A stretch of DNA of 64,000 nucleotides from Gammaproteobacteria bacterium (GTDB taxonomy: Bacteria; Pseudomonadota; Gammaproteobacteria; Ga0077554; Ga007554), in NCBI GenBank assembly GCA_040183005.1, contig JAMPIW010000009.1, positions 50,876 through 114,875 of the forward strand. The letters run 5' to 3'. This document shows positions 3,416-64,000 of the stretch, one piece after another (the stretch's first letter is position 1; the number at the start of each line of letters is the position of its first letter). The notes below the pieces were generated by a model that saw only the letters and a list, made by a program, of their open reading frames with translations, searched no databases and was not told the origin of the DNA. The translations under genes and the position numbers were made by a program.

Positions 3416-3471
3416 CGGTGTGGGGGGTTATTAAGTTCCAGGTTCAACGCCATGCTCTTTATATGTTTGAT

Positions 3472-4792
3472 CAGAAGTGTCCGGTAATTTAATTGAATAG
3501 ATTCAATTGGTTATTGTCTTTCTGCATGCTCATTTGCGTCTCCGCATTTTTAAGTAATTGATCGAGTGGCGTTTTCTCGAAAAGAGTCAGGCTCAAAATC
3601 TGTAGGATTGTGTAAAGCGAAGCCTCGGTATTGAGCCGCTTTTTCACGATGGCGACCAAGACGTAAACCGCGATGGCGATCCATATTTGCGTCTTGACTG
3701 CATTCTCGGTGGTGCCATAGAACCGCTTGATTCGAAGATGCTGTTTGATCCACTTGAAGAATAGCTCGACCTGCCAGCGGCAACGATAAAGCTGAGCGAT
3801 GGTCAGCGCAGGCAGGTCGAAGTTGTTGGTCAGAAAGACCAGAAACCTGTCGTGTTCGGCATCGTAGAACTTGATGCGTCGCAGGTGCTGCGGGTAATCC
3901 TTGCTGGCCTTGCGAGCAGTCAATGCAATGGTCTGGTCGCAGCGCAGTCCAGTGGACTTGTCCACGGTGCGAGAGTAGACGCGACGAAAGAGCAGATTGG
4001 ATTTGCCACGGATGACAAAGAACGCCTGTGCTTGATGCAGGGTGAACCAGCGAGCGAAGTCGGTGAAGCCACGATCCATGATGTAAAAGCTGCCGGCTTC
4101 GGGTATCAGGATATCGAGCACATTGACCTCGTGCATCTTGCCATCGCTGATGTGGATGAAGGTTGGAATGTTGCCGCGCAGGTCGAGCAGCGTATGCATC
4201 TTGACGGCAGCTTTGGTGGAGCGGAAGCGTGCCCACGGAAAGACGCTCAAGCACAGGTCGATGGTCGTGGTATCGAGTGCGTAGACCGTCTGTTCCAGTT
4301 CGACCGCAAAGCTGTCGCTGGCGTAAAGCTTTCTGGCGGTCTGGATTAAGCTCATCGCGAAATCCGCGTAGATGCGACAGTCGCGTTGCTCGTTGGCATC
4401 GGCCAGCGTGCTCTTGGCGATGTTGCCTCGTATGCCCAAGTGATAGAGCTTGGCTTGGTGGGCGCGCAGACAGGTTTCGATGTCGCGCAGGCTTTCGCGG
4501 TAAGTCAGCTGCGCGAACGCCATGCAGAGAAATTGATCGAGATGCGAAAAAGTCTTGGTGGGATATTTGGAAGGGTAGCGCTGCACGCAGCGACGGAATG
4601 TGTGAAGGGGCAAATGCTCCATGAGTTGTGCGAACACCAACTGGCCTGAATACATGACGGAAACTCCTGGGGGGAAAGCCCCAGTTTCCCAAAAAATTCA
4701 CGTTCAAGTCGGTGACACCCCTAAACACACACTTTCCTATTCAACATCATCATGTTATATAGCCGTCTTTGCGAAATTGCCGGACACTTCTG
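3472..4792 (-). mobile_element. IS4-family insertion sequence, copy 1 (1321 bp)
   Basis: 17-bp terminal inverted repeats CAGAAGTGTCCGG.../...CCGGACACTTCTG. Flanked by the 9-bp direct repeat ATGTTTGAT at 3463-3471 and 4793-4801. Nearly identical to the copy at 60763-62083. Confidence 0.85.
3489..4655 (-). CDS. IS4-family DDE transposase (DUF4372-type N-terminus)
   Basis: 388-aa ORF with N-terminus MYSGQLVFAQLMEHL...DQFLCMAFAQLTYRESLRDIE typical of IS4/DUF4372 transposases. Identical to the second copy except one residue. Confidence 0.85.
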   Translation of the reverse strand: MYSGQLVFAQLMEHLPLHTFRRCVQRYPSKYPTKTFSHLDQFLCMAFAQLTYRESLRDIETCLRAHQAKLYHLGIRGNIAKSTLADANEQRDCRIYADFAMSLIQTARKLYASDSFAVELEQTVYALDTTTIDLCLSVFPWARFRSTKAAVKMHTLLDLRGNIPTFIHISDGKMHEVNVLDILIPEAGSFYIMDRGFTDFARWFTLHQAQAFFVIRGKSNLLFRRVYSRTVDKSTGLRCDQTIALTARKASKDYPQHLRRIKFYDAEHDRFLVFLTNNFDLPALTIAQLYRCRWQVELFFKWIKQHLRIKRFYGTTENAVKTQIWIAIAVYVLVAIVKKRLNTEASLYTILQILSLTLFEKTPLDQLLKNAETQMSMQKDNNQLNLFN

Positions 4793-4841
4793 ATGTTTGA
4801 TACAATAATCAAAATTGGTATACGAAAGCAGAGGGCTTCAA

Positions 4842-13491: not shown

Positions 13492-13500
13492 GGGATATTA

Positions 13501-13765
13501 GAGCCTGTCTGTGAATAAATCATCCCTGCGACGGAGGCCGGTTTTGCGCAGGGCAAGGAAGGCTGAGCGTAGTGTGCTTGTTGCACATGAGTGAAGCGTG
13601 ACGCCGCACTGCGCAAAACCGACCCCGTCCCTTCGGGTTGCGCCCCAAAACACGCCATGCGGCGTTGCTCGCCGCTTATTTGGAACAACCAAACTGCGCA
13701 GCTCGCGCCTTGCCTGGCGTGTTTTGGGGCAGCAACGCAGGGATGATTTATTCACAGATAGGCTC
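13501..13765. repeat. MITE-like element with 30-bp terminal inverted repeats
   Basis: GAGCCTGTCTGTGAATAAATCATCCCTGCG at 13501-13530 is the reverse complement, with one mismatch, of 13736-13765. The two arms enclose about 205 bp of GC-rich noncoding DNA. TTA sits on both flanks. Confidence 0.55.
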
Positions 13766-13905
13766 TTAGTGTAGTATGTGAACCCGAATGCTTCATAAAT
13801 TCGGGTTAGGTCTCTTAAAAATCGCATTCATGCTTTTTTTAAGATCACCCTATATCGAGAGCCTCCGATTTACCCAGAGATCTCTGCCAAAGATTGTTTT
13901 TGTAA

Positions 13906-26724: not shown

Positions 26725-26931
26725 TCACTGCTTCTCCGTCTCTGGATCTTCAGGGGGCGTGTGTTCTTCGGTTGGGACGCGGTATGACTCGCTTGCCCAT
26801 TCGCCCAAATCGATGAGTCGGCAGCGTTCGCTGCAAAACGGCCGCCAGCGCTGCTCCGGCGTCCATTCCACGGCTTTGCCGCACGTGGGACAGGTGACAA
26901 CGGTTTTTTTCACCTGCGTCATATGGTGCAA
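26725..26931 (-). CDS. yacG: DNA gyrase inhibitor YacG (zinc-ribbon)
   Basis: 68 aa with CPTCGK...CSERC. Conserved position next to zapD and coaE. Confidence 0.75.
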
Positions 26932-27686
26932 CAGGTCAACTCAAAGCTCACGTTGTCCATGGTCTGCACTGGACGCTCGTCTATCCGCTGCTCCATGAAG
27001 CGCACCGTGAAGCGGTGCTTGCCGCCGCTGATCTCGGCGAAATAGGGGCTGTCCGCCGGCACGGTAACACGCACGATGTGACATGGGGGCGTCGGCTCCA
27101 GGGTTTTTTGGAAAAAACCGGCCTCGGCGACTTCCTTCGCCGGTGGGGCGCTATCACGGATCAGCCGCAGGATCAGGCTAATGGATTGCGCGATGGCGCT
27201 GAAGGGTTTGAGCCACAGCTCAAGCTGTTGCCTGCGCACTTCAGGGGGTTGTTGCAGCCAGTAGTGGTAAGCGGGGAGATCGAAATCGCACGTGCCACCA
27301 GGGATGCTGCTGCGCTGCCGGATACTGTTAAGAAATTCGTTCTGCCGCAATTCCTGGCCGACTTGACCCTTGCTGGCGTGCAGATGGTCGATGAGCCCAT
27401 CCATGTCACTGAGCAGCGAGCCTAGCCTTTGGCGGTCGACACTAGGATTTTGCTCCAGTCTTTCCAATACGGTAATTTGCCGCTCGAGCTCCTTCATGAC
27501 CTCGGTCTTGAGATCGGCGCGACTGAAAATGCTCAGTATTTCCAGAATGCTGTTGAGTGTCGCGCGACTGTCCCATACGGAGTTATTCGCCAGATGGACA
27601 TACGCCTGCTGAAACAGGAATTCGAGCCGCAAAAAGGTGCGGATCCGTTCGTTGAGTGGTTGTTCGTAAGTGATTTTTTTCTGCAC
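26919..27686 (-). CDS. zapD: Cell division protein ZapD
   Basis: 255 aa with ZapD/YacF-like N-terminus ([21 protein letters not shown]). Confidence 0.85.
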
Positions 27687-27857
27687 GGAAGATTACCGAT
27701 TCGCTAGTCATCGCCGGAGCTTAGGCACTATACCTGATAATTTGAATAAATAAACAGAGAGTGTAAAACATTAAGAATGATAGCGTAAAAAAATTATGAG
27801 GAAGTCGCTGCAAGGCGACATTCGGCAGCCGGAACCGGGCCTTTAACCGCGCGATTT

Positions 27858-28457
27858 TCAGGAATGTTTTAGATAGCACTGGTGTAGCTCCAGGACGTGC
27901 TGGTGCAGTTCTTCAAGCCCATCATCATTGACGATGATGTCGTCCGCAGCCGCCAGGCGCTGCTCTCTACTGACTTGGGCATGGATAATCGCGGCGATTT
28001 CTGCGTCCGGTAGGCCATTGCGCACTCTCACGCGCTGGTATTGCAGATCTTCGGGGGTGTCCACCACCAGAATGCGGTCCACCAGTTCGGTTTGCCCGGT
28101 TTCCAGCAGCAGGGGAATGGAGAGAATGCAGTAAGGAGTGGCGCTGGCTTCAATGTAGGCGATGCGCCGACGCATCTCGGCACGGATCAGGGGGTGCAGG
28201 ATAGCCTCAAGCTGCTTGCGGCGCGCAGCGTCATTGAACACGATGGCGCGCAGCCGTGCCCGGTCGAGTTGTCCGTCGCCATGCAGGATATCCGACCCAA
28301 AGGCGCTGACGATGTCCTGCAGCGCCGGTTGCCCGGGGATTGTCAGCTCGTGGGCGATCTTGTCGGCATCAATGACCGGCACACCCAATGCGGCGAAGCT
28401 GTCCGCCACGGTGGTTTTGCCGCTACCGATACCGCCGGTTAAGCCGATTTTGAGCAT
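27858..28457 (-). CDS. coaE: Dephospho-CoA kinase
   Basis: 199 aa beginning MLKIGLTGGIGSGKTTV. Confidence 0.9.
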   Translation of the reverse strand: MLKIGLTGGIGSGKTTVADSFAALGVPVIDADKIAHELTIPGQPALQDIVSAFGSDILHGDGQLDRARLRAIVFNDAARRKQLEAILHPLIRAEMRRRIAYIEASATPYCILSIPLLLETGQTELVDRILVVDTPEDLQYQRVRVRNGLPDAEIAAIIHAQVSREQRLAAADDIIVNDDGLEELHQHVLELHQCYLKHS

Positions 28458-28492
28458 AAGGGTCAGGAGTCATGTACAAATTTAACGATAGC

Positions 28493-29380
28493 TTATCCTA
28501 ATCCTGCCATGCCCAGGTAGGCCTGCATTATTTGCTCACCCCACATCAATGTGACCCATCCCGCCGCCGCGAGGTAAGGGCCGAAGGGGATGGGGGAATT
28601 CTTGTCGCGGCCGCGCAGCAGCACCAGGGAGATGCCTACCACCGCCCCCACCAGGGAAGACAGCAGAATCACTACCGGCAGCGCCTGCCAGCCCAGCCAC
28701 GCGCCGAACATGGCGAGGAGCTTGAAGTCGCCATACCCCATGCCTTCACGCCCAGTCAGCAGTTTAAAAGCCATATACACCGACCACAGGCTAAGGTAAC
28801 CGGCCATCGCGCCGATGATGCTGGCATAGCTGCTGGCAAACACGTTGAACAGGCTGAGGGCGAGTCCGCCCCACAGGAAGGGTAAAGTAATCGAGTCAGG
28901 CAGCAGGTGATGATCAAAGTCAATAACGCTCAGTGCAACCAGCGCCCATGTCAGCAATAGTGCCGCGCCCGCCGCCCATCCGAAACCGAACCGCCATGCC
29001 ACGGCGACGGAAAGCACGGCGGTGAAGGCCTCAATTATCGGGTAACGCGCGGAAATGCGCGCGCCGCATGACGAACACTTGCCCCGGAGCAGCAGATAGC
29101 TCACCACGGGTATGTTTTCCAGCGAGGTAATGGCGTGGCCGCAGTGCGGGCAGCGCGAGCGCGGTGCAGCCAGGTCGAAACGTTCCTGGGGTGGCGTACC
29201 CCTCGCTCCGCTCTCTCCAGCGCCGAGGAATTCCGCACACTCGGCACGCCACTGGCGCTCCATCATGATCGGTAGGCGGTGTATCACGACATTCAGAAAG
29301 CTGCCGATGAGCAGGCCTAAAATGCAGGCTATAACAATAAAGGCGGTGGGGCTGGCTTGCAGATAATCAATAATATTCAT
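28493..29380 (-). CDS. pilD: Prepilin peptidase / N-methyltransferase PilD
   Basis: A24-family sequence. Start trimmed to MNIIDYLQASP, giving about 295 aa; the longer track ORF would overlap pilC. Confidence 0.85.
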   Translation of the reverse strand: MNIIDYLQASPTAFIVIACILGLLIGSFLNVVIHRLPIMMERQWRAECAEFLGAGESGARGTPPQERFDLAAPRSRCPHCGHAITSLENIPVVSYLLLRGKCSSCGARISARYPIIEAFTAVLSVAVAWRFGFGWAAGAALLLTWALVALSVIDFDHHLLPDSITLPFLWGGLALSLFNVFASSYASIIGAMAGYLSLWSVYMAFKLLTGREGMGYGDFKLLAMFGAWLGWQALPVVILLSSLVGAVVGISLVLLRGRDKNSPIPFGPYLAAAGWVTLMWGEQIMQAYLGMAGLG

Positions 29381-29432
29381 AACCATCCAGGGTAAACAGT
29401 GTGCCGTCAGCAGGCAAAAAATATCACGACTC

Positions 29433-30665
<1,233 letters not shown>

Positions 30666-30670
30666 GATCT

Positions 30671-32395
30671 TTATACCGTAATTACCCGATTGATTTCCGC
30701 AAGGCTGGTCATGCCCTGCTTGATTTTTTTCAGCCCCGATGCGCGCAAGTCCGGGATGCCCTCCTTCTTCGCCTGATCGGCAATCTGCATGGAGTTACCA
30801 CCCGCCATGATGATTCGGCCCATAGCCTCGGAAATCGGCATGACCTGATAGATACCAACCCGCCCCTTATATCCCTCATTACACTGATCGCAGCCAACCG
30901 TGCCGTAGATCGTAAAACCCTCATCCAGATCCGCCTCCGTGAAACCCTCCATGAGCAAGGCCTCACGGGGGAGATCCACAGGTTTTTTGCAATGGCTGCA
31001 CAAACGCCGCGCCAGACGCTGAGCGATGATCAGCGACACTGCGGAGGCGATGTTGAACGGCGCTACTCCCATGTTGAGCAAACGGCTCAGGGTCTGCGGC
31101 GCATCGTTGGTATGCAGGGTAGACAGCACCATGTGGCCGGTCTGCGCTGCCTTGATGGCAATCTCGGCCGTCTCCAGGTCGCGAATTTCACCCACCATGA
31201 TGACATCGGGATCCTGACGCAAAAACGCCTTCAAGGCGGCGGCGAACGTCAGCCCCACCCTGGGGTTGACGTTCACCTGGTTGACGCCCGGCAGATTAAT
31301 TTCCGCAGGGTCTTCGGCGGTGGAAATGTTTCGGTCCATCGTGTTAAGTATGTTTAGCCCGGTATACAGCGACACGGTTTTACCACTACCGGTCGGGCCG
31401 GTCACCAGGATCATCCCGTAGGGCATGTGCAGCGCGTTCATATACAGCGCCTTTTGCTCCGGCTCATAGCCCAGCGCGTCGATGCCCAGCTTGGCGCTGG
31501 AGGGGTCGAGAATACGCAGCACGATCTTCTCGCCGAACAGCGTGGGGCAGGTGTTGACGCGGAAGTCGATGGCGCGGGTCTTGGAGAGCACCATCCTCAT
31601 GCGTCCGTCCTGCGGCACACGGCGTTCCGAGATATCCAGGCGCGACATCACCTTGAGGCGCGCGGACATTTTATTGGCCAGTGCAACCGGCGGGTTGGCG
31701 GCCTCGTGCAGCATGCCGTCCTGGCGGTAGCGGATGCGATAAACCTTTTCATAGGGTTCGAAGTGGATATCCGACGCCCCCTTATTGATCGCATCGAGCA
31801 GAATCTTGTTGATGAAGCGCACCACCGGCGCATCATCGACGTCCGGCCCGGTGCCCGCGTCCTTGCTCGCGTTATCGTCCTCGCTGGTAATGTCCAGATT
31901 ATCGAGATCGGCATCACCGATATCCGTAATGGCAGAGTCCTTCGCCTCCAACACCTTTTCGATTGCCTTGGCGAGCTTGTCTTCCTCGACCAGTACCGTC
32001 TCGGTATTGACGCTGGCATGGAACTTGATTTCATCCAGCCCCGCCAGATTGGTGGGGTCGGACACCGCAACGAACAGGCGATTGCCGCGCTTGAACAGAG
32101 GCAGCGCGTTATGCGCGCGGATCAGCTTTTCGCTCACCAGGCTGCTCGCCGCCATCTCCATATCCATGACGTTGATATCGAACAGCGGCACGCCGAACTC
32201 CACGGAGCCCGCCTGGGCGATAGCGTAGCTGTCCGCCAATTTGCTTTGCACCAGATGGCTGACGAACGCTATTTTGTTTTTCGTCGCATACTCCTGGGCC
32301 TTGAATACCTGGTCTTCGTTCAACAGGCCGTCGAGCACCAGGCGGCGCGCTAGGCCGCTAAGGCCGATATTGATACTGGATGCAGCCACACTCAT
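30671..32395 (-). CDS. pilB: Type IV pilus assembly ATPase PilB
   Basis: 574 aa GspE-family ATPase with Walker A GPTGSGKT and a tetracysteine motif. Confidence 0.95.
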   Translation of the reverse strand: MSVAASSINIGLSGLARRLVLDGLLNEDQVFKAQEYATKNKIAFVSHLVQSKLADSYAIAQAGSVEFGVPLFDINVMDMEMAASSLVSEKLIRAHNALPLFKRGNRLFVAVSDPTNLAGLDEIKFHASVNTETVLVEEDKLAKAIEKVLEAKDSAITDIGDADLDNLDITSEDDNASKDAGTGPDVDDAPVVRFINKILLDAINKGASDIHFEPYEKVYRIRYRQDGMLHEAANPPVALANKMSARLKVMSRLDISERRVPQDGRMRMVLSKTRAIDFRVNTCPTLFGEKIVLRILDPSSAKLGIDALGYEPEQKALYMNALHMPYGMILVTGPTGSGKTVSLYTGLNILNTMDRNISTAEDPAEINLPGVNQVNVNPRVGLTFAAALKAFLRQDPDVIMVGEIRDLETAEIAIKAAQTGHMVLSTLHTNDAPQTLSRLLNMGVAPFNIASAVSLIIAQRLARRLCSHCKKPVDLPREALLMEGFTEADLDEGFTIYGTVGCDQCNEGYKGRVGIYQVMPISEAMGRIIMAGGNSMQIADQAKKEGIPDLRASGLKKIKQGMTSLAEINRVITV

Positions 32396-32545: not shown

Positions 32546-32578
32546 ATAAAAAAGCAGGGTGGGCAATGCCCACCCTGC
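32546..32578 (-). terminator. Rho-independent terminator downstream of pilA
   Basis: On the minus strand, GCAGGGTGGGCA-TTG-CCCACCCTGC is followed by TTTTTT. Confidence 0.6.
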
Positions 32579-32606: not shown

Positions 32607-33041
32607 TTAGCAGATCGCAGGAGAGGTAGTGCAGCTGCCAGTCGCAGTCCATGTAACACCATTTACAGAACTAAAAGCTGGGGTTAGAATATAAGTTTCA
32701 CCACTTAGGCCATTAGCGCTACGAGCTGTTGCTGTAATTACCCCAGCCGCTGAGGTAGCAACAGTAGCAACAAATTTAGTGGGATTCGTCGCCGCAAGAT
32801 CCGCTGGAACGCCATTTGTATTGCCAGCGCAAGCCGCTATCGGGGAAACCCCCTGATCCTGGGCGCATAACTCAACAGCTGTTTTGACTGCTTGGGTCGC
32901 CTGAACCACTTCAGTGAATTTCGCTTTTTTCGTATATTGCTGATATGCCGGAATCGCAATCGCCGCCAGGATGCCGATAATCGCTACAACGATCATCAAC
33001 TCGATCAGTGTAAAACCTTGTTGTGCCTTCTTCATGTTCAT
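32607..33041 (-). CDS. pilA: Type IV major pilin PilA
   Basis: Class III signal with [22 protein letters not shown] and a C-terminal disulfide pair. Confidence 0.85.
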
Positions 33042-33516
33042 GGTGTTTATCCTCGTTTGTTTGGGGTAAAAGTCTGTGGCGCCTGTCCTGATTTAATCAC
33101 TAGTCCTTTTGTGTGCTGCGCTTCCAGTGTCTGAGCGGTTCAAGCCAGACGCCTTGCCATGAATAAAGCAGGAGGCGTGCCAACTTTCGGCGGAAAGTGC
33201 GTACACAATCGAAATCAGTGTGCGGGCCATGCAAAAGTGTGATGTGCGTCACAAAAAAGCCGATGTTGGCGGGGTCAATCCGTAAAGCGGCGGACCCAGC
33301 AACATGCGGCTTGTGGGTCCTCTATGCTTGACCCAGCCTACATCATGCCGTTTTGGGTCAGAAAGTGACGAATAATGCCAATACAGTAAATATGGTTATT
33401 ATAATGTTTTGGTGGTTTCGTGCAATGCCTATTTTGAGTCAAGGAAGTTTGCCGCCCCGTTACTCCAAAATCATGCAGGGTGCGCGTCCCATGCACCCTG
33501 CACATTGCACTTTATC

Positions 33517-36120
33517 CTAAAACCGGCGACCGGACTCCGGCTCCAAAGGAGGCTGGAGCCGCCCGGCTTGTCGTGCCTGCACAGCTGCGCCAGCGCGCAG
33601 GCTGGTGTCGAAGCCGGTGGTGAAGTCAATGCCGCCGAGGTCGCTGTCGGTGAGGGTGACCAGCTTGGGTTGCTCCAGGGTGAGATAGCCGCCACAGGCT
33701 TCGCCGGGGTCGCAGATGATCTGGTTGTTGTTGGAGTCCGACCCGGCGATGACCTGGTAGGTACCCGCCACAACGCCAGTGAGGTTGTAGCGGTACTGGC
33801 CGCTGGCATTGACACCAACGGCAGCCTGCCTCATGACTTTGCCAGTAGCGGGGTCGATCAGCAGCACATAGTGATAACCGGCATCCGGGCTGGCGATGGC
33901 GCCTGGCCCGCCTACCTGCAGTGTGACACGCAGCGCCACGGTATTCGCGGAGGAGGTGAAGGTGAGGGTGGCAGCATACGCGCCGATAGCGAGGCCGCTA
34001 CGGTCTACCTTCACCGTATAAACACCCAGCTTGGTGCTGGGGTCAACGGATTTTTCCGTGACACTCAACCATGGGGCGTCATCCGTCGGTGCATTTACGC
34101 TGACTGCGCCACCGATGCTCCCGACAGCAAGGTCGATTTCTGTGGATACAAGGCCGAAGTTGAGAGTGGCGGGGCTGATAATCAGTGTTGGCTTGAGTGC
34201 ACTACTTTGGGCTGCCGAGACCGCCTTGTACGCATCTATCAACCCATGACCGTATTTATCATCACGCCCCGAATCGCCGATATCCTGGGTGATATCGCCC
34301 TGTATCAGAAACATATCAACGATATCCGGCGTCAATCCGGGATTCACCGCCTTCATCAAGGCAATCACACCCGCCACATGTGGTGTGGCCATTGAGGTGC
34401 CTTGCAGAAAGCTGTAGGTGTATTGGACAGTACCCCCCGTATCATCGCCGCGCGTACTGAGAATACCGTCGGGAAATCCATCCCCGTTGATATCTTTACG
34501 GCTGTCGCCACCCGGTGCGGCCACGTCGATATTCGCGCCATAGTTGGAGTAGTAGGCCAGCCCCTTGGCGGTATCCACCGCGCTCACCGAGATTACACCG
34601 GTGTAGGAGGCGGGATAGAAGGCGGTGCTGCTCGCCTCGTTGCCGGCGGCAGCCACGACGATCACGCCCTGCGCACGGGCCTTGGTATAGACATCCTGCT
34701 CAGCCTGGGAATAACCGCTGCCGCCCAGGCTCAGGTTGATGATGTCCGCGCGCTGATCGGGAACCTTGCCGGAATCATTGATTAACCCCGCCGCGTAACG
34801 CACCGCCTGGAGGATGTCATAGCTGGTACCTCCCAGTTTGCCGAGCGCGCGCAGCGGCATGGCCTTGGCGCCCCACGCCACCCCCGCCACTCCCTTGCCA
34901 TTATTGGTGGCTGCGGCGATGGTGCCCGTCACATGGGTGCCGTGAAAACTGCTGCCCGTCGGACCCTGGTCGCCGGGGTCAGCGGGATCGCTGTCGATGC
35001 CGTCACCGTCCAGGGCACTGGTTGGATTTTTGATGAAATCGTAGCCGGGGACGAGCTGGCCTTGCAGGTCTGGGTGGCCGAGCAACACGCCGGTATCGAT
35101 CACCGCAACGATCACGTTGCTGTTGCCGGTGGTGATATCCCAGGCCTGCGGCAGATTGATCAGCGGATAGTGCCACTGGCGGGAATAAGATTCATCGTTG
35201 GGAATCGCAGTGGCGGTGCGGATGTAGTTGGGCTCGGCATAGGCGACATCGGCGCGGCGGCGCAGGGCCTTGATGGCCTGGATTGTCTCGCGTTTGAGTT
35301 GGACTTGCTCGCTGGCAGGTGCCTGATTGAGCGGCACATCAGAGGTGGATATCCCCAGTGCCCGGCGCATCTGGCTGCGCTGCTGCACATCGCCCAGACC
35401 CAACAGTATGGGTCGGCCCGCCGCACCCGCTTTGGCTGCCAAGCCCAGCGCTTGGGCGCTACCAGCCGCGCCTTTGGCAACAGACGCATCGTCCTTGAAA
35501 CGCACGATGATCTCGCCCGGCACAAAATCGCTACCCAGCCGCAGCGAGGAGGCTTCCGCCTGGGACGAATTAAAGCCGATGGTGAGGGTATAGGTGGAGG
35601 CGGCACCGGTATAGGCAAAAACCTCGACATAATACGTGCCCGGCACAACCACTTTGATCGACTCGACCCTGGTTACATCTTCCGTGCTATCCACCAAGGT
35701 TCCGTTCTGGCTATAAAGATAGACATCCAGATCGTTTGCGGCAGGGTTCGACTCACCAATGCTGAGTGTAATGATCTGATTAGCCGCGAGTGTAACCTTG
35801 TAGAAGTCCGAGACATCTCCCCGCATTTGCGACCTACCCGGCATCCCTGCCCTCGGTTGATTGACATACCCCCCAATCGCCACTGGATTGCCGACTGGCT
35901 GGGCATGGTCGAAATCGTCATTCGGCGCATACGGTGCGGCGAGGTCATTGACATCGCTATCCATCGCCGTATACACCGCAGCGCTGATCGCACCGCTGAT
36001 CGCATAGGTTTTCTCCGCTGGTGATGGAGGCGTGCCACCACCACCGCCCCCACCACACCCGCTCTGCGCGGCGGCAAGGACGACTATCACACTAAAGAAA
36101 AATCGCCGCCAAATTTTCAT
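33517..36120 (-). CDS. S8 subtilisin-family serine peptidase, predicted lipoprotein with extra N- and C-terminal domains
   Basis: 867 aa with lipobox LAAAQSGC. Catalytic triad motifs VIDTGV (Asp), HGTHVTGTIAA (His) and GTSMATPHVAG (Ser). Confidence 0.85.
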   Translation of the reverse strand: MKIWRRFFFSVIVVLAAAQSGCGGGGGGGTPPSPAEKTYAISGAISAAVYTAMDSDVNDLAAPYAPNDDFDHAQPVGNPVAIGGYVNQPRAGMPGRSQMRGDVSDFYKVTLAANQIITLSIGESNPAANDLDVYLYSQNGTLVDSTEDVTRVESIKVVVPGTYYVEVFAYTGAASTYTLTIGFNSSQAEASSLRLGSDFVPGEIIVRFKDDASVAKGAAGSAQALGLAAKAGAAGRPILLGLGDVQQRSQMRRALGISTSDVPLNQAPASEQVQLKRETIQAIKALRRRADVAYAEPNYIRTATAIPNDESYSRQWHYPLINLPQAWDITTGNSNVIVAVIDTGVLLGHPDLQGQLVPGYDFIKNPTSALDGDGIDSDPADPGDQGPTGSSFHGTHVTGTIAAATNNGKGVAGVAWGAKAMPLRALGKLGGTSYDILQAVRYAAGLINDSGKVPDQRADIINLSLGGSGYSQAEQDVYTKARAQGVIVVAAAGNEASSTAFYPASYTGVISVSAVDTAKGLAYYSNYGANIDVAAPGGDSRKDINGDGFPDGILSTRGDDTGGTVQYTYSFLQGTSMATPHVAGVIALMKAVNPGLTPDIVDMFLIQGDITQDIGDSGRDDKYGHGLIDAYKAVSAAQSSALKPTLIISPATLNFGLVSTEIDLAVGSIGGAVSVNAPTDDAPWLSVTEKSVDPSTKLGVYTVKVDRSGLAIGAYAATLTFTSSANTVALRVTLQVGGPGAIASPDAGYHYVLLIDPATGKVMRQAAVGVNASGQYRYNLTGVVAGTYQVIAGSDSNNNQIICDPGEACGGYLTLEQPKLVTLTDSDLGGIDFTTGFDTSLRAGAAVQARQAGRLQPPLEPESGRRF

Positions 36121-37117
36121 AATAGTTCCGATACCCCAGCAGGTGTGCAGCCTTCAACGCCAACTCAATACACCACCTGGTTCCGCCCCCCTCTTTGGCC
36201 TGATACAGCTTGGTATCGGCGCATTCAAGGATGGCTTCCACTGACTGCGGCCCTTGCTCCGCACCACTATAGAAACAGACACCGAGTGAGGCAGTGACGG
36301 AAAGGTTACCCGCAGCGGTTTTGACTGGCCGCTGATCGATAGCGCGCAGGATACGCTCAAAGAGCGCGGGGTTGGATTGGTTAGCATCCGCGCAATACAT
36401 GATCACCGCAAACTCCTCTCCACCCATGCGCACCACAACATCGGTTGGGCGCACTGCGCGGCGCAGACGATTGGCGACGGCCACCAGTACCTCGTCGCCC
36501 ACCGCATGTCCATAGCTGTCATTCACGGCCTTGAAGTGGTCGATGTCTGCGATAGCAAGGTAAATGGCGCCGCCACGCGTGGCGGTTTCCAGCATCAACG
36601 CTTCCAGATGGGTGCGCATATAACGCCGGTTGCCAAGACCGGTGAGCGGGTCCGTGGTCGCCAACTCTTCCAGACGCAGGTTGTGAGCGGCCAGGTTCTG
36701 GGCAGTTTCAAACAGCGTATTCTGCAACGCAGCAATGCGCCCGGCGGCATGGAGGCGCGCGGCGAGCTCCCGTTCATCGACGGGCTTTGTCAGATAGTCA
36801 TCGACACCGCGCTCAAAGGCAAGCACGAGATTCTCCACGCCCTCCTTTGCGGTAAACAGGATGACGGAGGTATAGTGGTTGCCGGCCTCATCCTGCTGAC
36901 GGATGTGATTGGTGAGTTCCAGGCCATCCATCTCAGGCATCACCCAGTCCGCCAGCACGACATCGGCGGGGCGATGCGCCAGCAGTGTCAGCGCCTCACC
37001 GGCGGAGCTGGCCGTACGGACATCGCGATAACCGCTATTGGCAAGCGCGACGCATACGGCCTCGCGGCCAAGATGCATATCGTCTACCACGACGATGGAG
37101 AGATCGTTGTTGATCAT
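36092..37117 (-). CDS. Response regulator with REC and GGDEF (diguanylate cyclase) domains
   Basis: 341 aa with receiver Asp region (VVLADWVMPEMDG) and RMGGEEF in the C-terminal domain. Confidence 0.85.
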   Translation of the reverse strand: MINNDLSIVVVDDMHLGREAVCVALANSGYRDVRTASSAGEALTLLAHRPADVVLADWVMPEMDGLELTNHIRQQDEAGNHYTSVILFTAKEGVENLVLAFERGVDDYLTKPVDERELAARLHAAGRIAALQNTLFETAQNLAAHNLRLEELATTDPLTGLGNRRYMRTHLEALMLETATRGGAIYLAIADIDHFKAVNDSYGHAVGDEVLVAVANRLRRAVRPTDVVVRMGGEEFAVIMYCADANQSNPALFERILRAIDQRPVKTAAGNLSVTASLGVCFYSGAEQGPQSVEAILECADTKLYQAKEGGGTRWCIELALKAAHLLGYRNYYENLAAIFL

Positions 37118-59802: not shown

Positions 59803-60585
59803 TCACGCCGCCCGGTTCACGAAATGCCTCACATAGCGTGCATCCAGCCGGTCCCTGTCGAGCAGAATCAGCATGTCCGCTACGTTAATGTGTGGATCCC
59901 AGGCGGGTTCACCGCAGATTACCGCGCCGAGGCGCATATAGGCCTTGAGTAGGGGCGGGGTGCTGGGCGTGGCCGTTATGTCATGCTGAAACAGATCCAG
60001 ACCCGGCACAGCTAACCGGGGTGTGGCGCGCCAGGCATCGGGGCCGAGGTGGTTGTCGCGCAGGTAGTGATAAGTCGCCGCGACCTTTTTCACGCCCATG
60101 CTCATGGGGATGCTGGCGCAGCCCATCATGTAATCGAAGTTGTTGATGTCCATGTAACGTGTGAGTCCTGCCCATAACAGCCCGATAGTGCTGCCATTGC
60201 GGTAGTTGGGGTGGACGCAGGTGCGGCCCACTTCCATGATGCGCGCGGGCATGGTGAGGATGTTGCTCAGGTCAAACTCGGTTTGTGAATAAAAACCACC
60301 GGCTTCGATGGCCTGGGTGTCGGTGAGAATCCGATAGCAGCCTGCCACCTGATCGTTGTTGAGGTCGCGCACCAGCAAGTGCTGGCAGTAGGGATCAAAG
60401 CGGTCGCTTTCCATGCCGGGCTGTTTGCACGAAATACGCGCGCCCATCTCCTCGACAAACATCTGATAACGCAGGCGCTGGGCGGCTTCGATGTCTTTTT
60501 TCGAGATTGCCAGGCCAACATGCAGGTGATGTCCCTGGTGTGATTCGATTTCAAAAGATTGGTTTTGTAGCGCAGCCAAAGCCAT
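59803..60585 (-). CDS. GNAT-fold N-acyl amino acid synthase-like protein (exosortase/OlsB-like type)
   Basis: 260 aa. AAQRLRYQMFVEEMG plus downstream motifs resemble the Acetyltransf_5 / TIGR03694 family (from memory). Confidence 0.55.
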   Translation of the reverse strand: MALAALQNQSFEIESHQGHHLHVGLAISKKDIEAAQRLRYQMFVEEMGARISCKQPGMESDRFDPYCQHLLVRDLNNDQVAGCYRILTDTQAIEAGGFYSQTEFDLSNILTMPARIMEVGRTCVHPNYRNGSTIGLLWAGLTRYMDINNFDYMMGCASIPMSMGVKKVAATYHYLRDNHLGPDAWRATPRLAVPGLDLFQHDITATPSTPPLLKAYMRLGAVICGEPAWDPHINVADMLILLDRDRLDARYVRHFVNRAA

Positions 60586-60762
60586 GACATGAACTCCTCA
60601 TTTTAGTTTAAGGCCGCGCACGCAGCATTCATGTATACCTGTGTATCCTGGCAAAGGATGGCGATTTTGTGTTACGGGGCCATAACGGAATGATGAATTT
60701 TTCTTTACAGCGCGGTGTGACGTTGGACTAAACACACTGGAGTAAATGTTAATATTCTGATT

Positions 60763-62083
60763 CAGAAGTGTCCGGTAATTTAATTGAATAGATTCAATTG
60801 GTTATTGTCTTTCTGCATGCTCATTTGCGTCTCCGCATTTTTAAGTAATTGATCGAGTGGCGTTTTCTCGAAAAGAGTCAGGCTCAAAATCTGTAGGATT
60901 GTGTAAAGCGAAGCCTCGGTATTGAGCCGCTTTTTCACGATGGCGACCACGACGTAAACCGCGATGGCGATCCATATTTGCGTCTTGACTGCATTCTCGG
61001 TGGTGCCATAGAACCGCTTGATTCGAAGATGCTGTTTGATCCACTTGAAGAATAGCTCGACCTGCCAGCGGCAACGATAAAGCTGAGCGATGGTCAGCGC
61101 AGGCAGGTCGAAGTTGTTGGTCAGAAAGACCAGAAACCTGTCGTGTTCGGCATCGTAGAACTTGATGCGTCGCAGGTGCTGCGGGTAATCCTTGCTGGCC
61201 TTGCGAGCAGTCAATGCAATGGTCTGGTCGCAGCGCAGTCCAGTGGACTTGTCCACGGTGCGAGAGTAGACGCGACGAAAGAGCAGATTGGATTTGCCAC
61301 GGATGACAAAGAACGCCTGTGCTTGATGCAGGGTGAACCAGCGAGCGAAGTCGGTGAAGCCACGATCCATGATGTAAAAGCTGCCGGCTTCGGGTATCAG
61401 GATATCGAGCACATTGACCTCGTGCATCTTGCCATCGCTGATGTGGATGAAGGTTGGAATGTTGCCGCGCAGGTCGAGCAGCGTATGCATCTTGACGGCA
61501 GCTTTGGTGGAGCGGAAGCGTGCCCACGGAAAGACGCTCAAGCACAGGTCGATGGTCGTGGTATCGAGTGCGTAGACCGTCTGTTCCAGTTCGACCGCAA
61601 AGCTGTCGCTGGCGTAAAGCTTTCTGGCGGTCTGGATTAAGCTCATCGCGAAATCCGCGTAGATGCGACAGTCGCGTTGCTCGTTGGCATCGGCCAGCGT
61701 GCTCTTGGCGATGTTGCCTCGTATGCCCAAGTGATAGAGCTTGGCTTGGTGGGCGCGCAGACAGGTTTCGATGTCGCGCAGGCTTTCGCGGTAAGTCAGC
61801 TGCGCGAACGCCATGCAGAGAAATTGATCGAGATGCGAAAAAGTCTTGGTGGGATATTTGGAAGGGTAGCGCTGCACGCAGCGACGGAATGTGTGAAGGG
61901 GCAAATGCTCCATGAGTTGTGCGAACACCAACTGGCCTGAATACATGACGGAAACTCCTGGGGGGAAAGCCCCAGTTTCCCAAAAAATTCACGTTCAAGT
62001 CGGTGACACCCCTAAACACACACTTTCCTATTCAACATCATCATGTTATATAGCCGTCTTTGCGAAATTGCCGGACACTTCTG
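60763..62083 (-). mobile_element. IS4-family insertion sequence, copy 2 (1321 bp)
   Basis: Same TIRs as copy 1. One SNP relative to copy 1 (3659 A versus 60950 C). Flanked by the 9-bp direct repeat ATTCTGATT at 60754-60762 and 62084-62092. Confidence 0.85.
60780..61946 (-). CDS. IS4-family DDE transposase (copy 2)
   Basis: 388 aa, identical to copy 1 except L to V at one position. Confidence 0.85.
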   Translation of the reverse strand: MYSGQLVFAQLMEHLPLHTFRRCVQRYPSKYPTKTFSHLDQFLCMAFAQLTYRESLRDIETCLRAHQAKLYHLGIRGNIAKSTLADANEQRDCRIYADFAMSLIQTARKLYASDSFAVELEQTVYALDTTTIDLCLSVFPWARFRSTKAAVKMHTLLDLRGNIPTFIHISDGKMHEVNVLDILIPEAGSFYIMDRGFTDFARWFTLHQAQAFFVIRGKSNLLFRRVYSRTVDKSTGLRCDQTIALTARKASKDYPQHLRRIKFYDAEHDRFLVFLTNNFDLPALTIAQLYRCRWQVELFFKWIKQHLRIKRFYGTTENAVKTQIWIAIAVYVVVAIVKKRLNTEASLYTILQILSLTLFEKTPLDQLLKNAETQMSMQKDNNQLNLFN

Positions 62084-62241
62084 ATTCTGATTTTTTTTGA
62101 CAACGAACCATCCCGGCAATTATCGTACCGGCTGCTCATTGATGGATGATCCTGAAAACGGCAGGGAGCATCCCAATACACTATTTCTTCAGATAACCAC
62201 CGGCGAGGGATCGTCTTTATGAAAAAGACAGAAAAAATCCC

Positions 62242-64000
62242 ATGCCCCACGCCGTTTCCGCTTCTTCTGATGTAGACACCGGCCTTGCCTGTGTAGTACT
62301 GCTGGCCCGATTTTTCGGGCTACCCATCGATCCCAATCAACTTCAGCATCAATTCGGCCAAACCGGCCGGCTGTTCGACGCCACGGACATCCTGCTGGCG
62401 GCTAAGCATCTGGGCCTCAAGGCCAAGGCGATCGAAAGCAATTGGGCGCGCCTTGCGGACACCCCGCTGCCCGCCATCGTCCAGCACCACGACGGGCATT
62501 ATTTCATCGTCGCCAAGATCGACGGCGACAAGGTGCTAATCCAGGACCCCCTCGAACAGCGCCCCCTCATCCTGCCGCGCGAAATCTTTGAAAAGGCCTG
62601 GTGCGGAAAACTGATTCTTTTCACGCGCCGCGCCAAGCTGGCCGAAGGCGGGGTCGGCAAATTCGATTTCACCTGGTTCATCCCGGCCATTATCAAGCAC
62701 CGGCGGCTGTTTGGTGAGGTGCTGATAGCCTCGTTCTTTATCCAGTTGTTCGCGCTGGTGACCCCGCTGTTCTTCCAGGTGGTCATCGACAAGGTGCTGG
62801 TGCACAAGGGACTGACCACGCTGGATGTACTGCTATTCGGGCTGGTGGTGATTTCGCTGTTCGAGGTGGTGCTTGGCGGCTTGCGCACCTACCTCTATTC
62901 CCACACCGCGCATCGCATTGATGTCAGTCTGGGGGCCAAACTGTTCCGGCACATGCTGGCCCTGCCGCTGGCCTACTTCGAGGCGCGGCGGGTCGGTGAC
63001 ACCGTGGCCAGGGTGCGGGAACTCGAGAGCATCCGCCAGTTTCTCACCGGCTCGGCCCTCACCGTGGTGGTGGACGCCTTCTTCACGGTGGTCTTCATCG
63101 CCGTGATGTACTACTACAGCCCACTGTTGACATGGATTGTGCTGGGGTCGATTCCCCTGTACGCGCTGCTTTCAGTGCTCGTGACGCCGGTGCTGCGCGC
63201 CCGCCTGCACGAAAAGTTCAACCGCGGTGCGGAGAATCAGGCCTTTCTCGTCGAATCCATCAACGGCGTGCAGACCCTCAAGGCGATGGCCGTCGAACCG
63301 CAGATGCAGCGCCGCTTTGAGGAGCAACTGGCCGGTTATGTGCGCGCCGGATTCCGGGCCGACATGCTGGGCAATACGGCAAGCCAGATCGCCTCCCTGA
63401 TCAATAAGCTCGTCATTGCGGCCACGCTGTGGTTCGGTGCCCATCTGGTAATCGAAGGCAGCCTGAGTGTGGGGCAGTTGGTCGCCTTCAACATGCTGGC
63501 GGCGCGGGTCAGCGGCCCGGTGTTGCGGCTGGTGCAGCTCTGGCAGGATTTCCAGCAGGCCGGCATTTCCGTGCAGCGGCTCGGCGATATCCTTAACGCC
63601 CACCCCGAGCCAGGCTACAACCCCAACCGCGCCACCCTGCCCGCCTTCGCGGGGCGCGTCATAATCGACAACATCACCTTCCGCTACCGGCCGGATACGC
63701 CCGAAGTGCTGCGCCGCGTCTCCCTCGACGTGCAGCCCGGCGAGGTCATCGGCATCGTCGGCCGCTCGGGTTCCGGCAAGAGCACGCTCACCAAACTCAT
63801 CCAGCGCCTGTATGTCCCGGAAAGCGGGCGGATACTCATCGACGGGGTAGACCTCGCCATGGTCGAGCCCGCCTGGCTGCGCCGCCAGATCGGCGTGGTG
63901 TTGCAGGAAAACATGCTCTTCAACCGCACGGTGCGCGACAACATCGCCTTGGCGGACCCCGGCCTGCCGATGGAGGCGGTGATCGAGGCGGCCAAACTCG
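62242..64000 (+). CDS. Type I secretion system ABC transporter (HlyB-like) with N-terminal C39-like domain, 3' end outside window
   Basis: Open frame from the ATG at 62242 to the window end. Has a C39-like domain, six-TM region and Walker A GRSGSGKST. Not in the track because there is no stop in the window. Confidence 0.8.
   Translation, partial: MPHAVSASSDVDTGLACVVLLARFFGLPIDPNQLQHQFGQTGRLFDATDILLAAKHLGLKAKAIESNWARLADTPLPAIVQHHDGHYFIVAKIDGDKVLIQDPLEQRPLILPREIFEKAWCGKLILFTRRAKLAEGGVGKFDFTWFIPAIIKHRRLFGEVLIASFFIQLFALVTPLFFQVVIDKVLVHKGLTTLDVLLFGLVVISLFEVVLGGLRTYLYSHTAHRIDVSLGAKLFRHMLALPLAYFEARRVGDTVARVRELESIRQFLTGSALTVVVDAFFTVVFIAVMYYYSPLLTWIVLGSIPLYALLSVLVTPVLRARLHEKFNRGAENQAFLVESINGVQTLKAMAVEPQMQRRFEEQLAGYVRAGFRADMLGNTASQIASLINKLVIAATLWFGAHLVIEGSLSVGQLVAFNMLAARVSGPVLRLVQLWQDFQQAGISVQRLGDILNAHPEPGYNPNRATLPAFAGRVIIDNITFRYRPDTPEVLRRVSLDVQPGEVIGIVGRSGSGKSTLTKLIQRLYVPESGRILIDGVDLAMVEPAWLRRQIGVVLQENMLFNRTVRDNIALADPGLPMEAVIEAAKL

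Follow-up and report, generated by a model that had tools for sequence, protein, structure and literature searches.

Introduction

When a gene for a diguanylate cyclase overlaps a gene for a large subtilase, and both lie on the same strand immediately upstream of a pilin gene, does this arrangement disclose a common regulatory circuit, or only the history of the chromosome? The question is raised by a stretch of 64,000 nucleotides (nt) of DNA from Gammaproteobacteria bacterium (NCBI GenBank assembly GCA_040183005.1, contig JAMPIW010000009.1, positions 50,876 to 114,875), hereafter called the window, in which the gene of a response regulator with receiver and GGDEF domains (REC-GGDEF) runs into the start of a gene for a subtilase of peptidase family S8, itself followed by pilA. 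An earlier note on this DNA had read the overlap as translational coupling and the vicinity of pilA as a sign that cyclic di-GMP (c-di-GMP) governs both a surface protease and pilus functions.

The answer that we favour, with rather more confidence than doubt, is that the cyclase and subtilase genes form a two-gene unit derived from an ancestral rnt-cyclase-slot-grx arrangement, that their overlap stems from the length of a G run, and that the pil genes were joined to the unit by a rearrangement. The locus is an ordinary, lineage-restricted gene pair: a cyclase, a subtilase precursor with several domains and a pilin cluster, each of a standard kind, have been brought together by rearrangement.

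Results

Overlap between the cyclase and protease genes

The open reading frames (ORFs) of the cyclase and of the 867-residue protease were found at exactly the coordinates given by the earlier note, and its REC-GGDEF and S8 subtilase calls were right, both proteins having the corresponding Pfam matches; pilA, too, does lie next to the S8 gene and in the same orientation (32607-33041, minus strand). The genes concerned are the following:

36092-37117, minus strand: REC-GGDEF response-regulator diguanylate cyclase, 341 amino acids (aa) as read (ORF list, Pfam, orthologue columns)
33517-36120, minus strand: S8 subtilase precursor, 867 aa (ORF list, Pfam, alignment of homologues)
32607-33041, minus strand: pilA, type IVa major pilin, 475 nt past the S8 gene on the same strand (Pfam, NCBIfam)
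30671-32395, minus strand: pilB (ORF list; Pfam T2SSE and MshEN-family N-domain)
29433-30665, minus strand: pilC (ORF list; Pfam T2SSF)
26919-32395, minus strand: block of pilB, pilC, pilD, coaE and zapD, now joined to the 3' end of the S8 gene (Pfam)

The sequence as it stands does contain the 29-nt overlap (36092-36120), but only through a G run that is one base short. Two features define this situation:

36186-36191, minus strand: run of six Gs, the frameshift site behind the overlap (DNA alignment with relatives; in-silico base edits)
36165-36167, minus strand: TGA stop of the cyclase in the family frame, 44 nt upstream of the S8 ATG (DNA alignment; G added back)

In a DNA alignment of the junction, locus L004 has an unbroken run of seven Gs where the window has six, and in L001 and L007 the same stretch has an A interrupting the G run; the purine run is one base short in the window, which reads CAAAG-AGGGGGGCGG against CAAAGAGGGGGGGCGG in L004. 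When a single G is added in silico, the result is a 317-aa cyclase that ends in EGGRNQVVY and is separated by 44 nt from the S8 ATG. The cyclases of L001, L004 and L007 likewise have 317 aa and end in GGRN(R/Q)VV(F/Y), and the gap between cyclase and S8 ATG is 43, 197 and 27 nt, respectively. Since the overlap vanishes once the G run is restored, the apparent overlap is due to a one-base frameshift. A stop/start overlap occurs in none of the relatives compared, whose gaps measure 27, 43, 197 or 0-4 nt; judged from these alignments, the overlap is no conserved coupling device, and the translational coupling once proposed for it gives way to a frameshift peculiar to this assembly.

The protein alignments agree. 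The last 30 residues of the window cyclase are out of the family frame, its C-terminus reading AKEGGGTRW against AKxxGRNxV in orthologues; G311 and R312 are invariant in 35 orthologues, and R312 is lost by the frameshift. The matches listed in a homologue search span 90-93% of the cyclase query and none extends into its 24-residue tail. Within a cluster at 90% identity (n=8), six members have 316-317 aa and one has 320, the window protein being the only one with 341. The 320-aa member, P0246, comes from another sample (Logan assembly) and is identical to the window cyclase through residue 310, and the removal of one G in silico from the window sequence reproduces its odd C-terminus exactly (320 aa; five Gs). 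Near-identical sequences consequently display three states of the G run, namely the intact (7-G-equivalent) frame, six Gs (window) and five Gs (P0246). The idea that NCBI had flagged the window cyclase as a pseudogene was dropped, an exact look-up having returned it as a deposited 341-aa protein, MEQ6342999.1.

On this evidence the overlap would go back to an error in sequencing the homopolymer or else to a true mutation, which would replace the invariant GRN motif and the last strand of the cyclase and probably damage the enzyme. The three states of the run would likewise represent a sequencing artefact or a slippage polymorphism. On a more doubtful reading, slippage in the G run near the 3' end of the cyclase gene might switch the cyclase off and leave the protease unaffected. 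Beyond this case, the locus illustrates how a single homopolymer indel can mimic an overlapping, translationally coupled gene pair.

The cyclase-S8 pair in relatives

We compared 83 S8 loci, 80 of them from a scan of one genome per GTDB species and three from context look-ups. In tblastn searches of these loci with the window proteins, an orthologous REC-GGDEF gene abuts the S8 start in L001 (same contig as L005), L004 and L007 only, and the S8 proteins of these three loci are 78-80% identical to that of the window. From the look-ups, L084 has the cyclase stop and the S8 ATG 4 nt apart, with further genes after S8. In L002, whose S8 protein is 67% identical, the cyclase has suffered a 779-nt internal deletion and the stop of the remnant abuts the ATG of an intact S8 gene; the remnant (L002:6839-7000) encodes 53 aa, in which the N-terminus of the receiver is fused to the last 17 GGDEF residues.

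The pair, with gaps of 0-197 nt, is therefore found in every relative that has an S8 protein of 67% identity or more and a readable upstream region, and about 75 more distant S8 loci have no adjoining orthologous cyclase; by these comparisons the pairing does not extend to S8 genes below the 67% mark. The tight, conserved and co-oriented spacing in the nearest relatives renders co-transcription plausible, and on spacing and conservation the cyclase and S8 genes are probably co-transcribed. The linkage in relatives, on which the earlier note had made its reading depend, thus has two sides, the cyclase-S8 pair being kept in the nearest relatives but the linkage to pilA being absent from 82 other S8 loci. 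The pair stayed linked though both flanks changed, from rnt to rtcA-mazG upstream and from grx-asnB to pilA downstream; the cyclase has decayed twice, by the L002 deletion and the window frameshift, while S8 stayed intact.

The slot behind the cyclase

Look-ups from the cyclase side, covering nine sampled lineages, uncovered a conserved backbone in which the cyclase orthologue (55-68% identical) normally follows an amidohydrolase gene and rnt (RNase T) and precedes a variable slot, after which grx and asnB lie on the opposite strand. The slot is empty in L171 and holds rlmL in L166 and L167, an unknown 186-aa protein in L168 and L170, an M6 metalloprotease in L085 (41-nt gap) and L169 (11-nt overlap), and an S8 gene followed by further genes in L084. 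The M6 proteins are of the immune inhibitor A type and carry a signal peptide (L085:6990-9059, L169:3053-5071). Over the S8 and M6 cases, the cyclase and protease genes overlap by 11 nt at one extreme and stand 44 nt apart at the other, the one 197-nt spacer excepted.

As a control we took 80 unrelated REC-GGDEF loci (591 kb), which are 29-46% identical paralogues among the matches listed in a metagenome contig scan with the cyclase alignment and include no orthologue contexts. They contain neither S8 nor M6 genes, which argues that the occurrence of two protease classes in one slot is not background. The slot proteases nevertheless probably go back to no more than about two independent events, one behind both S8 cases and one behind both M6 cases. 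A literature search for a cyclase-subtilase operon returned no relevant paper.

The junction with pilA

Downstream of the pair the picture is altogether different, as four features indicate:

33580-33600, no strand: synteny breakpoint, inside the last ~25 codons of S8 (homology to the three closest relatives ends at ~33592-33593)
33467-33502, minus strand: terminator-like hairpin, 15 nt past the S8 stop, with a perfect 10-bp GC-rich stem and a 9-nt loop, then TGATTTT (sequence, fold)
33167-33182, minus strand: sigma-54-like -24/-12 element TGGCACGCCTCCTGCT, 126 nt upstream of the pilA ATG (one mismatch to TGGCAC-N5-TTGCW)
32554-32578, minus strand: strong intrinsic terminator after pilA, with an 11-bp stem of which 9 pairs are GC, then TTTTTT

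Neither pilA nor pilB stands beside S8 in any of the 82 other S8 loci, the three closest included; L066 has a PilB-like ATPase, 36% identical, ~3.5 kb from S8. Nucleotide homology with L001, L004 and L007 is continuous through MacB-type ABC transporter genes, mazG, rtcA (absent from L007), the cyclase and S8, and ends ~75 nt before the S8 stop, the C-terminal tails of the S8 proteins diverging in alignment from the breakpoint onward. What follows S8 in these three relatives is a remnant ORF of 125 aa, then grx and asnB; all three are missing from the whole window, as is rnt. Taken together, the synteny break and the missing downstream genes indicate that the pilABCD-coaE-zapD block was joined to the 3' end of S8 by a genome-specific rearrangement. 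From the sequence, the junction would be a rearrangement specific to this genome, a chimeric assembly being the less likely origin; no repeat or insertion sequence (IS) element was found at the S8/pilA junction.

The 71 nt around the hairpin fold at -23.1 kcal/mol (z=-2.2), and a terminator scanner made no call there, its loop limit being 8 nt versus the 9-nt loop. The pilin itself is of type IVa, with Pfam matches to N_methyl (E=6e-11) and Pilin (E=2e-7) and the methylation motif G↓FTLIE; the GC content of its gene at third codon positions is atypical, 0.42 versus ~0.7 in neighbouring genes. With the hairpin and the sigma-54-like element ahead of it, pilA appears to have a promoter of its own.

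c-di-GMP is known to control some PilB-type ATPases, by way of a tandem 24-residue MshEN motif, RLGxx(L/V/I)(L/V/I)xxG(L/V/I)(L/V/I)xxxxLxxxLxxQ (PMC5013675). A regular-expression search of the window PilB found neither a strict nor a relaxed form of this motif, the best stretch agreeing with 8 of the 11 positions that the motif specifies. Among the window ORFs scanned with Pfam there is no gene of the PilZ or FimX type, and no c-di-GMP-I or -II riboswitch, nor any other Rfam family at gathering score, occurs anywhere in the window. The proposed link to the pilus, which relied on adjacency, thus meets with a pilA and pilB that adjoin none of the other S8 loci, a synteny break, a hairpin and a promoter-like site in between, and a PilB without the MshEN motif. 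The proposed control of the protease by c-di-GMP fares no better, given the lack of a PilZ gene among the ORFs scanned and of a riboswitch, the survival of S8 where the cyclase is deleted (L002) and the ~75 distant S8 loci without an adjoining orthologous cyclase.

The cyclase

The cyclase has the Pfam domains Response_reg (residues 8-122, E=5e-25) and GGDEF (153-312, E=3e-41). Its receiver pocket is complete (D12, D13, D57, T89 and K111, which the window protein shares with all of 35 orthologues), its active site has the motif GGEEF, and an RxxD inhibitory site (I-site; RPTD) stands five residues ahead, in the order RPTD-VVVRM-GGEEF, R223 and D226 being invariant in the 35 orthologues. The closest solved structures are those of PleD, DgcR and WspR, which also give the best NCBIfam matches; the equivalog cutoffs of NCBIfam are not reached (PleD, 233 versus 474; DgcR, 170 versus 500). 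By homology with PleD, DgcR and WspR, the protein would work by phosphorylation-driven dimerisation and be subject to product inhibition. The window ORFs searched with Pfam include no histidine kinase and, with no kinase gene nearby, the cyclase would be an orphan response regulator.

The protease and its family

The architecture of the S8 precursor, in order from its N-terminus, is as follows:

36055-36120, minus strand: signal peptide and lipobox-like AAQSG↓C (Cys22), then a poly-Gly linker (alignment, pattern test)
35575-36009, minus strand: N-terminal beta domain, residues 38-182, including a PPC type, between lipid anchor and propeptide (Pfam PPC, AlphaFold strands 39-182)
35224-35526, minus strand: propeptide, residues 199-299, with an alpha/beta fold like the fervidolysin/I9 prodomain (Pfam PF22148, modelled secondary structure)
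34207-35208, minus strand: subtilisin catalytic domain, residues 305-638 (Pfam, structure matches, AlphaFold)
33610-34188, minus strand: two C-terminal beta sandwiches, residues 645-736 and 750-837, Ig-like or BACON/PapD-like

The Pfam matches are PPC (104-168), Fervidolysin_NPro-like PF22148 (250-298), Peptidase_S8 PF00082 (334-626, E=1.4e-57) and BACON_2 (646-733); the catalytic residues D342, H396 and S576, in D-H-S order, and the oxyanion N494 are invariant across 106 homologues. Pfam and an AlphaFold model (predicted local distance difference test score, pLDDT, 81), in which beta-rich domains flank the pro- and catalytic domains, agree on the extra beta-rich domains that had been noted at both sides of the protease. 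Foldseek with the whole model recovered the catalytic domain alone. When residues 640-840 were modelled by themselves (pLDDT 83), they matched generic folds (Ig-like, BACON, S-layer and PapD-like) that pointed to no particular function. Among solved structures, those nearest to the catalytic domain (36-43% identity) are 5yl7/Pro21717, gliadinase Bga1903, AprV2/BprV and StmPr1, all secreted subtilases. NCBIfam has no specific family for the protease, its PrtP model NF033595 scoring 142 bits versus a cutoff of 300 and aligning with the catalytic region alone.

The lipobox that had been claimed stands in part: throughout the S8 family Cys22 is conserved, as is the Gly linker, but the Gln at position -3 is non-canonical. 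Against the PS51257-like pattern [LVI][ASTVI][GAS]C, Gly at -1 and Ser at -2 fit and Gln at -3 does not; 84 of 106 family members pass, and the window clade fails. Lipidation at Cys22 is likely, if uncertain. A dependence of the protease on type IV pili for its secretion, after the manner of Dichelobacter nodosus, was considered and rejected, the linkage not being conserved and the protein having its own lipoprotein-type signal.

Relatives of the S8 protein number in the thousands in a search of 5.8 billion proteins, more than 100 of them full-length and 51-57% identical, in Gammaproteobacteria, Desulfobacterales and Nitrospirae; these have in common a signal peptide ending in Cys and a Gly run, an N-terminal beta domain, a propeptide, a catalytic domain and two C-terminal beta sandwiches. 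A modestly useful by-product of this work is the recognition of a large unnamed lipoprotein-type S8 family, widespread among Gammaproteobacteria and Desulfobacterales from the environment. Within the wider family, the neighbour conserved best is a gene for a ~170-aa protein with a PrcB_C domain, which directly follows the S8 gene in the same orientation at 41 of 83 loci, among them L003, L008 and L010-L017, and is fused to S8 in Anaeromyxobacter (L079:2711-5254). A hidden Markov model built from 33 downstream PrcB_C proteins found no such gene in the window, L001, L002, L004 or L007. Two genomes carry two S8 paralogues in tandem (L029:7001-12463, L033:6311-12310), and in a Nitrospirae relative a stand-alone PilZ-domain gene (L003:12082-12417) lies 2.5 kb downstream of the S8-PrcB_C pair, a single case that may be coincidence.

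Mobile elements and other features of the window

Several repeated elements occur in the window and its relatives. One of ~190 nt matches its own reverse complement (window 49190-49377; L004:6846-6908, inside the 197-nt spacer; L007:14963-15083). Another resembles a miniature inverted-repeat transposable element (271 nt, with terminal inverted repeats of ~31 nt; window 13498-13768) and has a 96% identical copy at a different genomic position in L007 (3359-3629). An IS4-type element of 1,324 bp (DUF4372 and DDE_Tnp_1) is present twice in the same orientation (3471-4794 and 60762-62085), and its copies, which are 99.9% identical, bracket almost the whole window. The low-GC stretch 44000-48000 (0.44-0.50 versus ~0.58) contains an IS66-family transposase (44728-46179) and ORFs without a Pfam match (46691-47476, 47961-48836), and is probably a small mobile island. 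Lastly, a GNAT gene resembling N-acyl amino acid synthases or autoinducer synthases (59803-60585) lies near a C39-peptidase ABC exporter (62242-64000) that runs past the end of the window.

Discussion

In the scenario that we favour, the cyclase and S8 genes would be a two-gene unit, probably an operon, inherited from the order amidohydrolase, rnt, REC-GGDEF, variable slot, grx, asnB, and from one transcript cyclase and protease would appear together. An unlinked kinase would phosphorylate D57, upon which the cyclase would dimerise and its GGEEF site would make c-di-GMP, the RxxD motif providing product inhibition, as extrapolated from WspR and DgcR. The S8 precursor would be exported by Sec and lipidated at Cys22, the Gly at +2 pointing to the outer membrane; its N-terminal beta domain and propeptide would hold the protease as a zymogen until autoprocessing freed the catalytic domain and the two Ig-like domains to degrade proteins at or beyond the cell surface. 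Two rearrangements would have replaced both flanks of the pair, the second setting pilABCD-coaE-zapD after the 3' end of S8, with pilA keeping a putative sigma-54-type promoter of its own. There is no evidence at this locus for an action of c-di-GMP on the protease, and no new regulatory mechanism is in evidence.

Several observations weigh against parts of this scenario. Co-transcription we infer from spacing and conservation, and the 197-nt spacer between cyclase and S8 in L004 carries a repeat-element insertion. Nine cyclase contexts were sampled, in which the S8 and M6 cases each probably go back to a single evolutionary event. As to the boundary with pilA, the advantage of the hairpin over shuffled sequence is no more than moderate, since 7 in 200 shuffles fold just as well, and the sigma-54-like match is not significant by count (~4 are expected per window), its position upstream of pilA being what gives it weight. 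Finally, lipidation of the protease is uncertain in view of the Gln at -3.

The best surviving competitor, which we regard as possible though distinctly less probable than the scenario above, is that of positional hitch-hiking, whereby accessory genes land in the variable slot behind the rnt-linked cyclase and their pairing has no functional or regulatory meaning. The unrelated slot contents of different lineages (RlmL, the 186-aa protein, M6, S8, nothing) speak in its favour, as do the intact S8 genes beside a cyclase that is internally deleted in L002 and frameshifted in the window, and the ~75 other S8 loci without an abutting orthologous cyclase, about half of which have a PrcB_C partner. 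Hitch-hiking does not readily explain, however, the operon-tight junctions (genes 0-4 nt apart in L002 and L084, and an M6 gene that overlaps the cyclase by 11 nt in L169), the arrival of two unrelated secreted proteases in one slot when 80 unrelated REC-GGDEF loci have neither S8 nor M6, or the survival of the pair through two rearrangements of its flanks.

At the opposite end lies a reading that is more ambitious and, in our estimation, doubtful: the rnt-linked orphan REC-GGDEF group might be dedicated to partnering a secreted protease that is exchangeable, S8 or M6, with the G run as slippage switch. The secreted proteases of two unrelated classes behind one cyclase orthologue are the second modestly useful by-product, a testable hint of a coupling between c-di-GMP signalling and extracellular proteolysis. 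If the reading were true, the locus would represent a c-di-GMP/protease cassette by which proteolysis outside the cell is linked to the change to a surface-attached life.

Artefacts of assembly are an unlikely source of both anomalies. By such an account the G-run length would be a sequencing error, with the cyclase gene intact and no overlap, and the pil junction at ~33.55-33.59 kb would be chimeric; the source is indeed a contig of 182,569 nt from a metagenome-assembled genome, on which the proteins MEQ6342998-MEQ6343000 are encoded, near-identical sequences have three states of the G run, and the break falls exactly at a gene end. Yet the junction has no repeat or IS element, the GC content is continuous across it, and the S8 ORF closes cleanly with a hairpin after it; moreover, a shortened run in two independent assemblies fits a real polymorphism equally well.

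Least credible of all, and by comparison with relatives already largely refuted, is a translationally coupled cyclase-protease unit tied to pilA in which c-di-GMP co-controls surface protease and type IV pili, for although the three genes are co-oriented with an overlap in the sequence, the catalytic domain is ~40% identical to D. nodosus AprV2/BprV, which need fimbriae for optimal secretion (PMC3480457), and some PilB-type ATPases are controlled by c-di-GMP (PMC5013675), the overlap is a frameshift unique to this assembly, pilA adjoins none of 82 other S8 loci and is set off by a synteny break at the S8 3' end, a hairpin and a promoter-like site lie in between, PilB lacks the MshEN motif and the protease has its own Sec/lipoprotein-type signal.

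The favoured two-gene unit can be set beside several known systems. WspR of Pseudomonas aeruginosa, DgcR of Leptospira and PleD of Caulobacter share with the window cyclase the succession of receiver, helical linker and GGDEF domain, the GG(D/E)EF motif and the RxxD I-site; unlike them, the window cyclase belongs to an rnt-linked orthologue group of its own, made of proteins of 315-317 aa, and unlike for WspR no Wsp-type chemosensory genes were found near it among the ORFs scanned. In P. aeruginosa-type clusters the order is pilB-pilC-pilD-coaE, pilA is divergent from pilBCD and pilA is dependent on sigma-54 and PilSR. The window resembles them in the order pilB-pilC-pilD-coaE and in a sigma-54-like element upstream of pilA, but its pilA is co-oriented with pilBCD and no pilS or pilR is present among the ORFs scanned.

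As regards the protease, AprV2, AprV5 and BprV of D. nodosus, Pro21717 and StmPr1 are likewise pre-pro-enzymes with C-terminal extensions (target template-modelling scores, TM-scores, ~0.85); they are described with a signal peptide, not as lipoproteins, and with no domain ahead of the propeptide, unlike the window S8 protein. Optimal secretion of the D. nodosus AprV2/BprV proteases requires type IV fimbriae (PMC3480457), a dependence whose sole genomic counterpart in the window is one unconserved adjacency. Dentilisin of Treponema denticola comes closer in one respect: there, the lipoprotein PrcB stabilises the acylated subtilase PrtP, whose lipidated N-terminal fragment is cleaved on activation (PMC8167434), and the window S8 protein is similarly a lipoprotein-type S8 precursor, with a probably lipidated N-terminal part upstream of the predicted activation cleavage site. 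Dentilisin has PrcB and PrcA as partners, whereas the window clade has no PrcB_C gene, the accessory domains differ, and no homologue of PrcA turned up, none having been searched for. PrcB has been described as without homologues outside oral Treponema (PMC8167434); through the PrcB_C genes of its other members, the S8 family to which the window protein belongs extends the dentilisin-like pairing of protease and PrcB well beyond the oral spirochetes.

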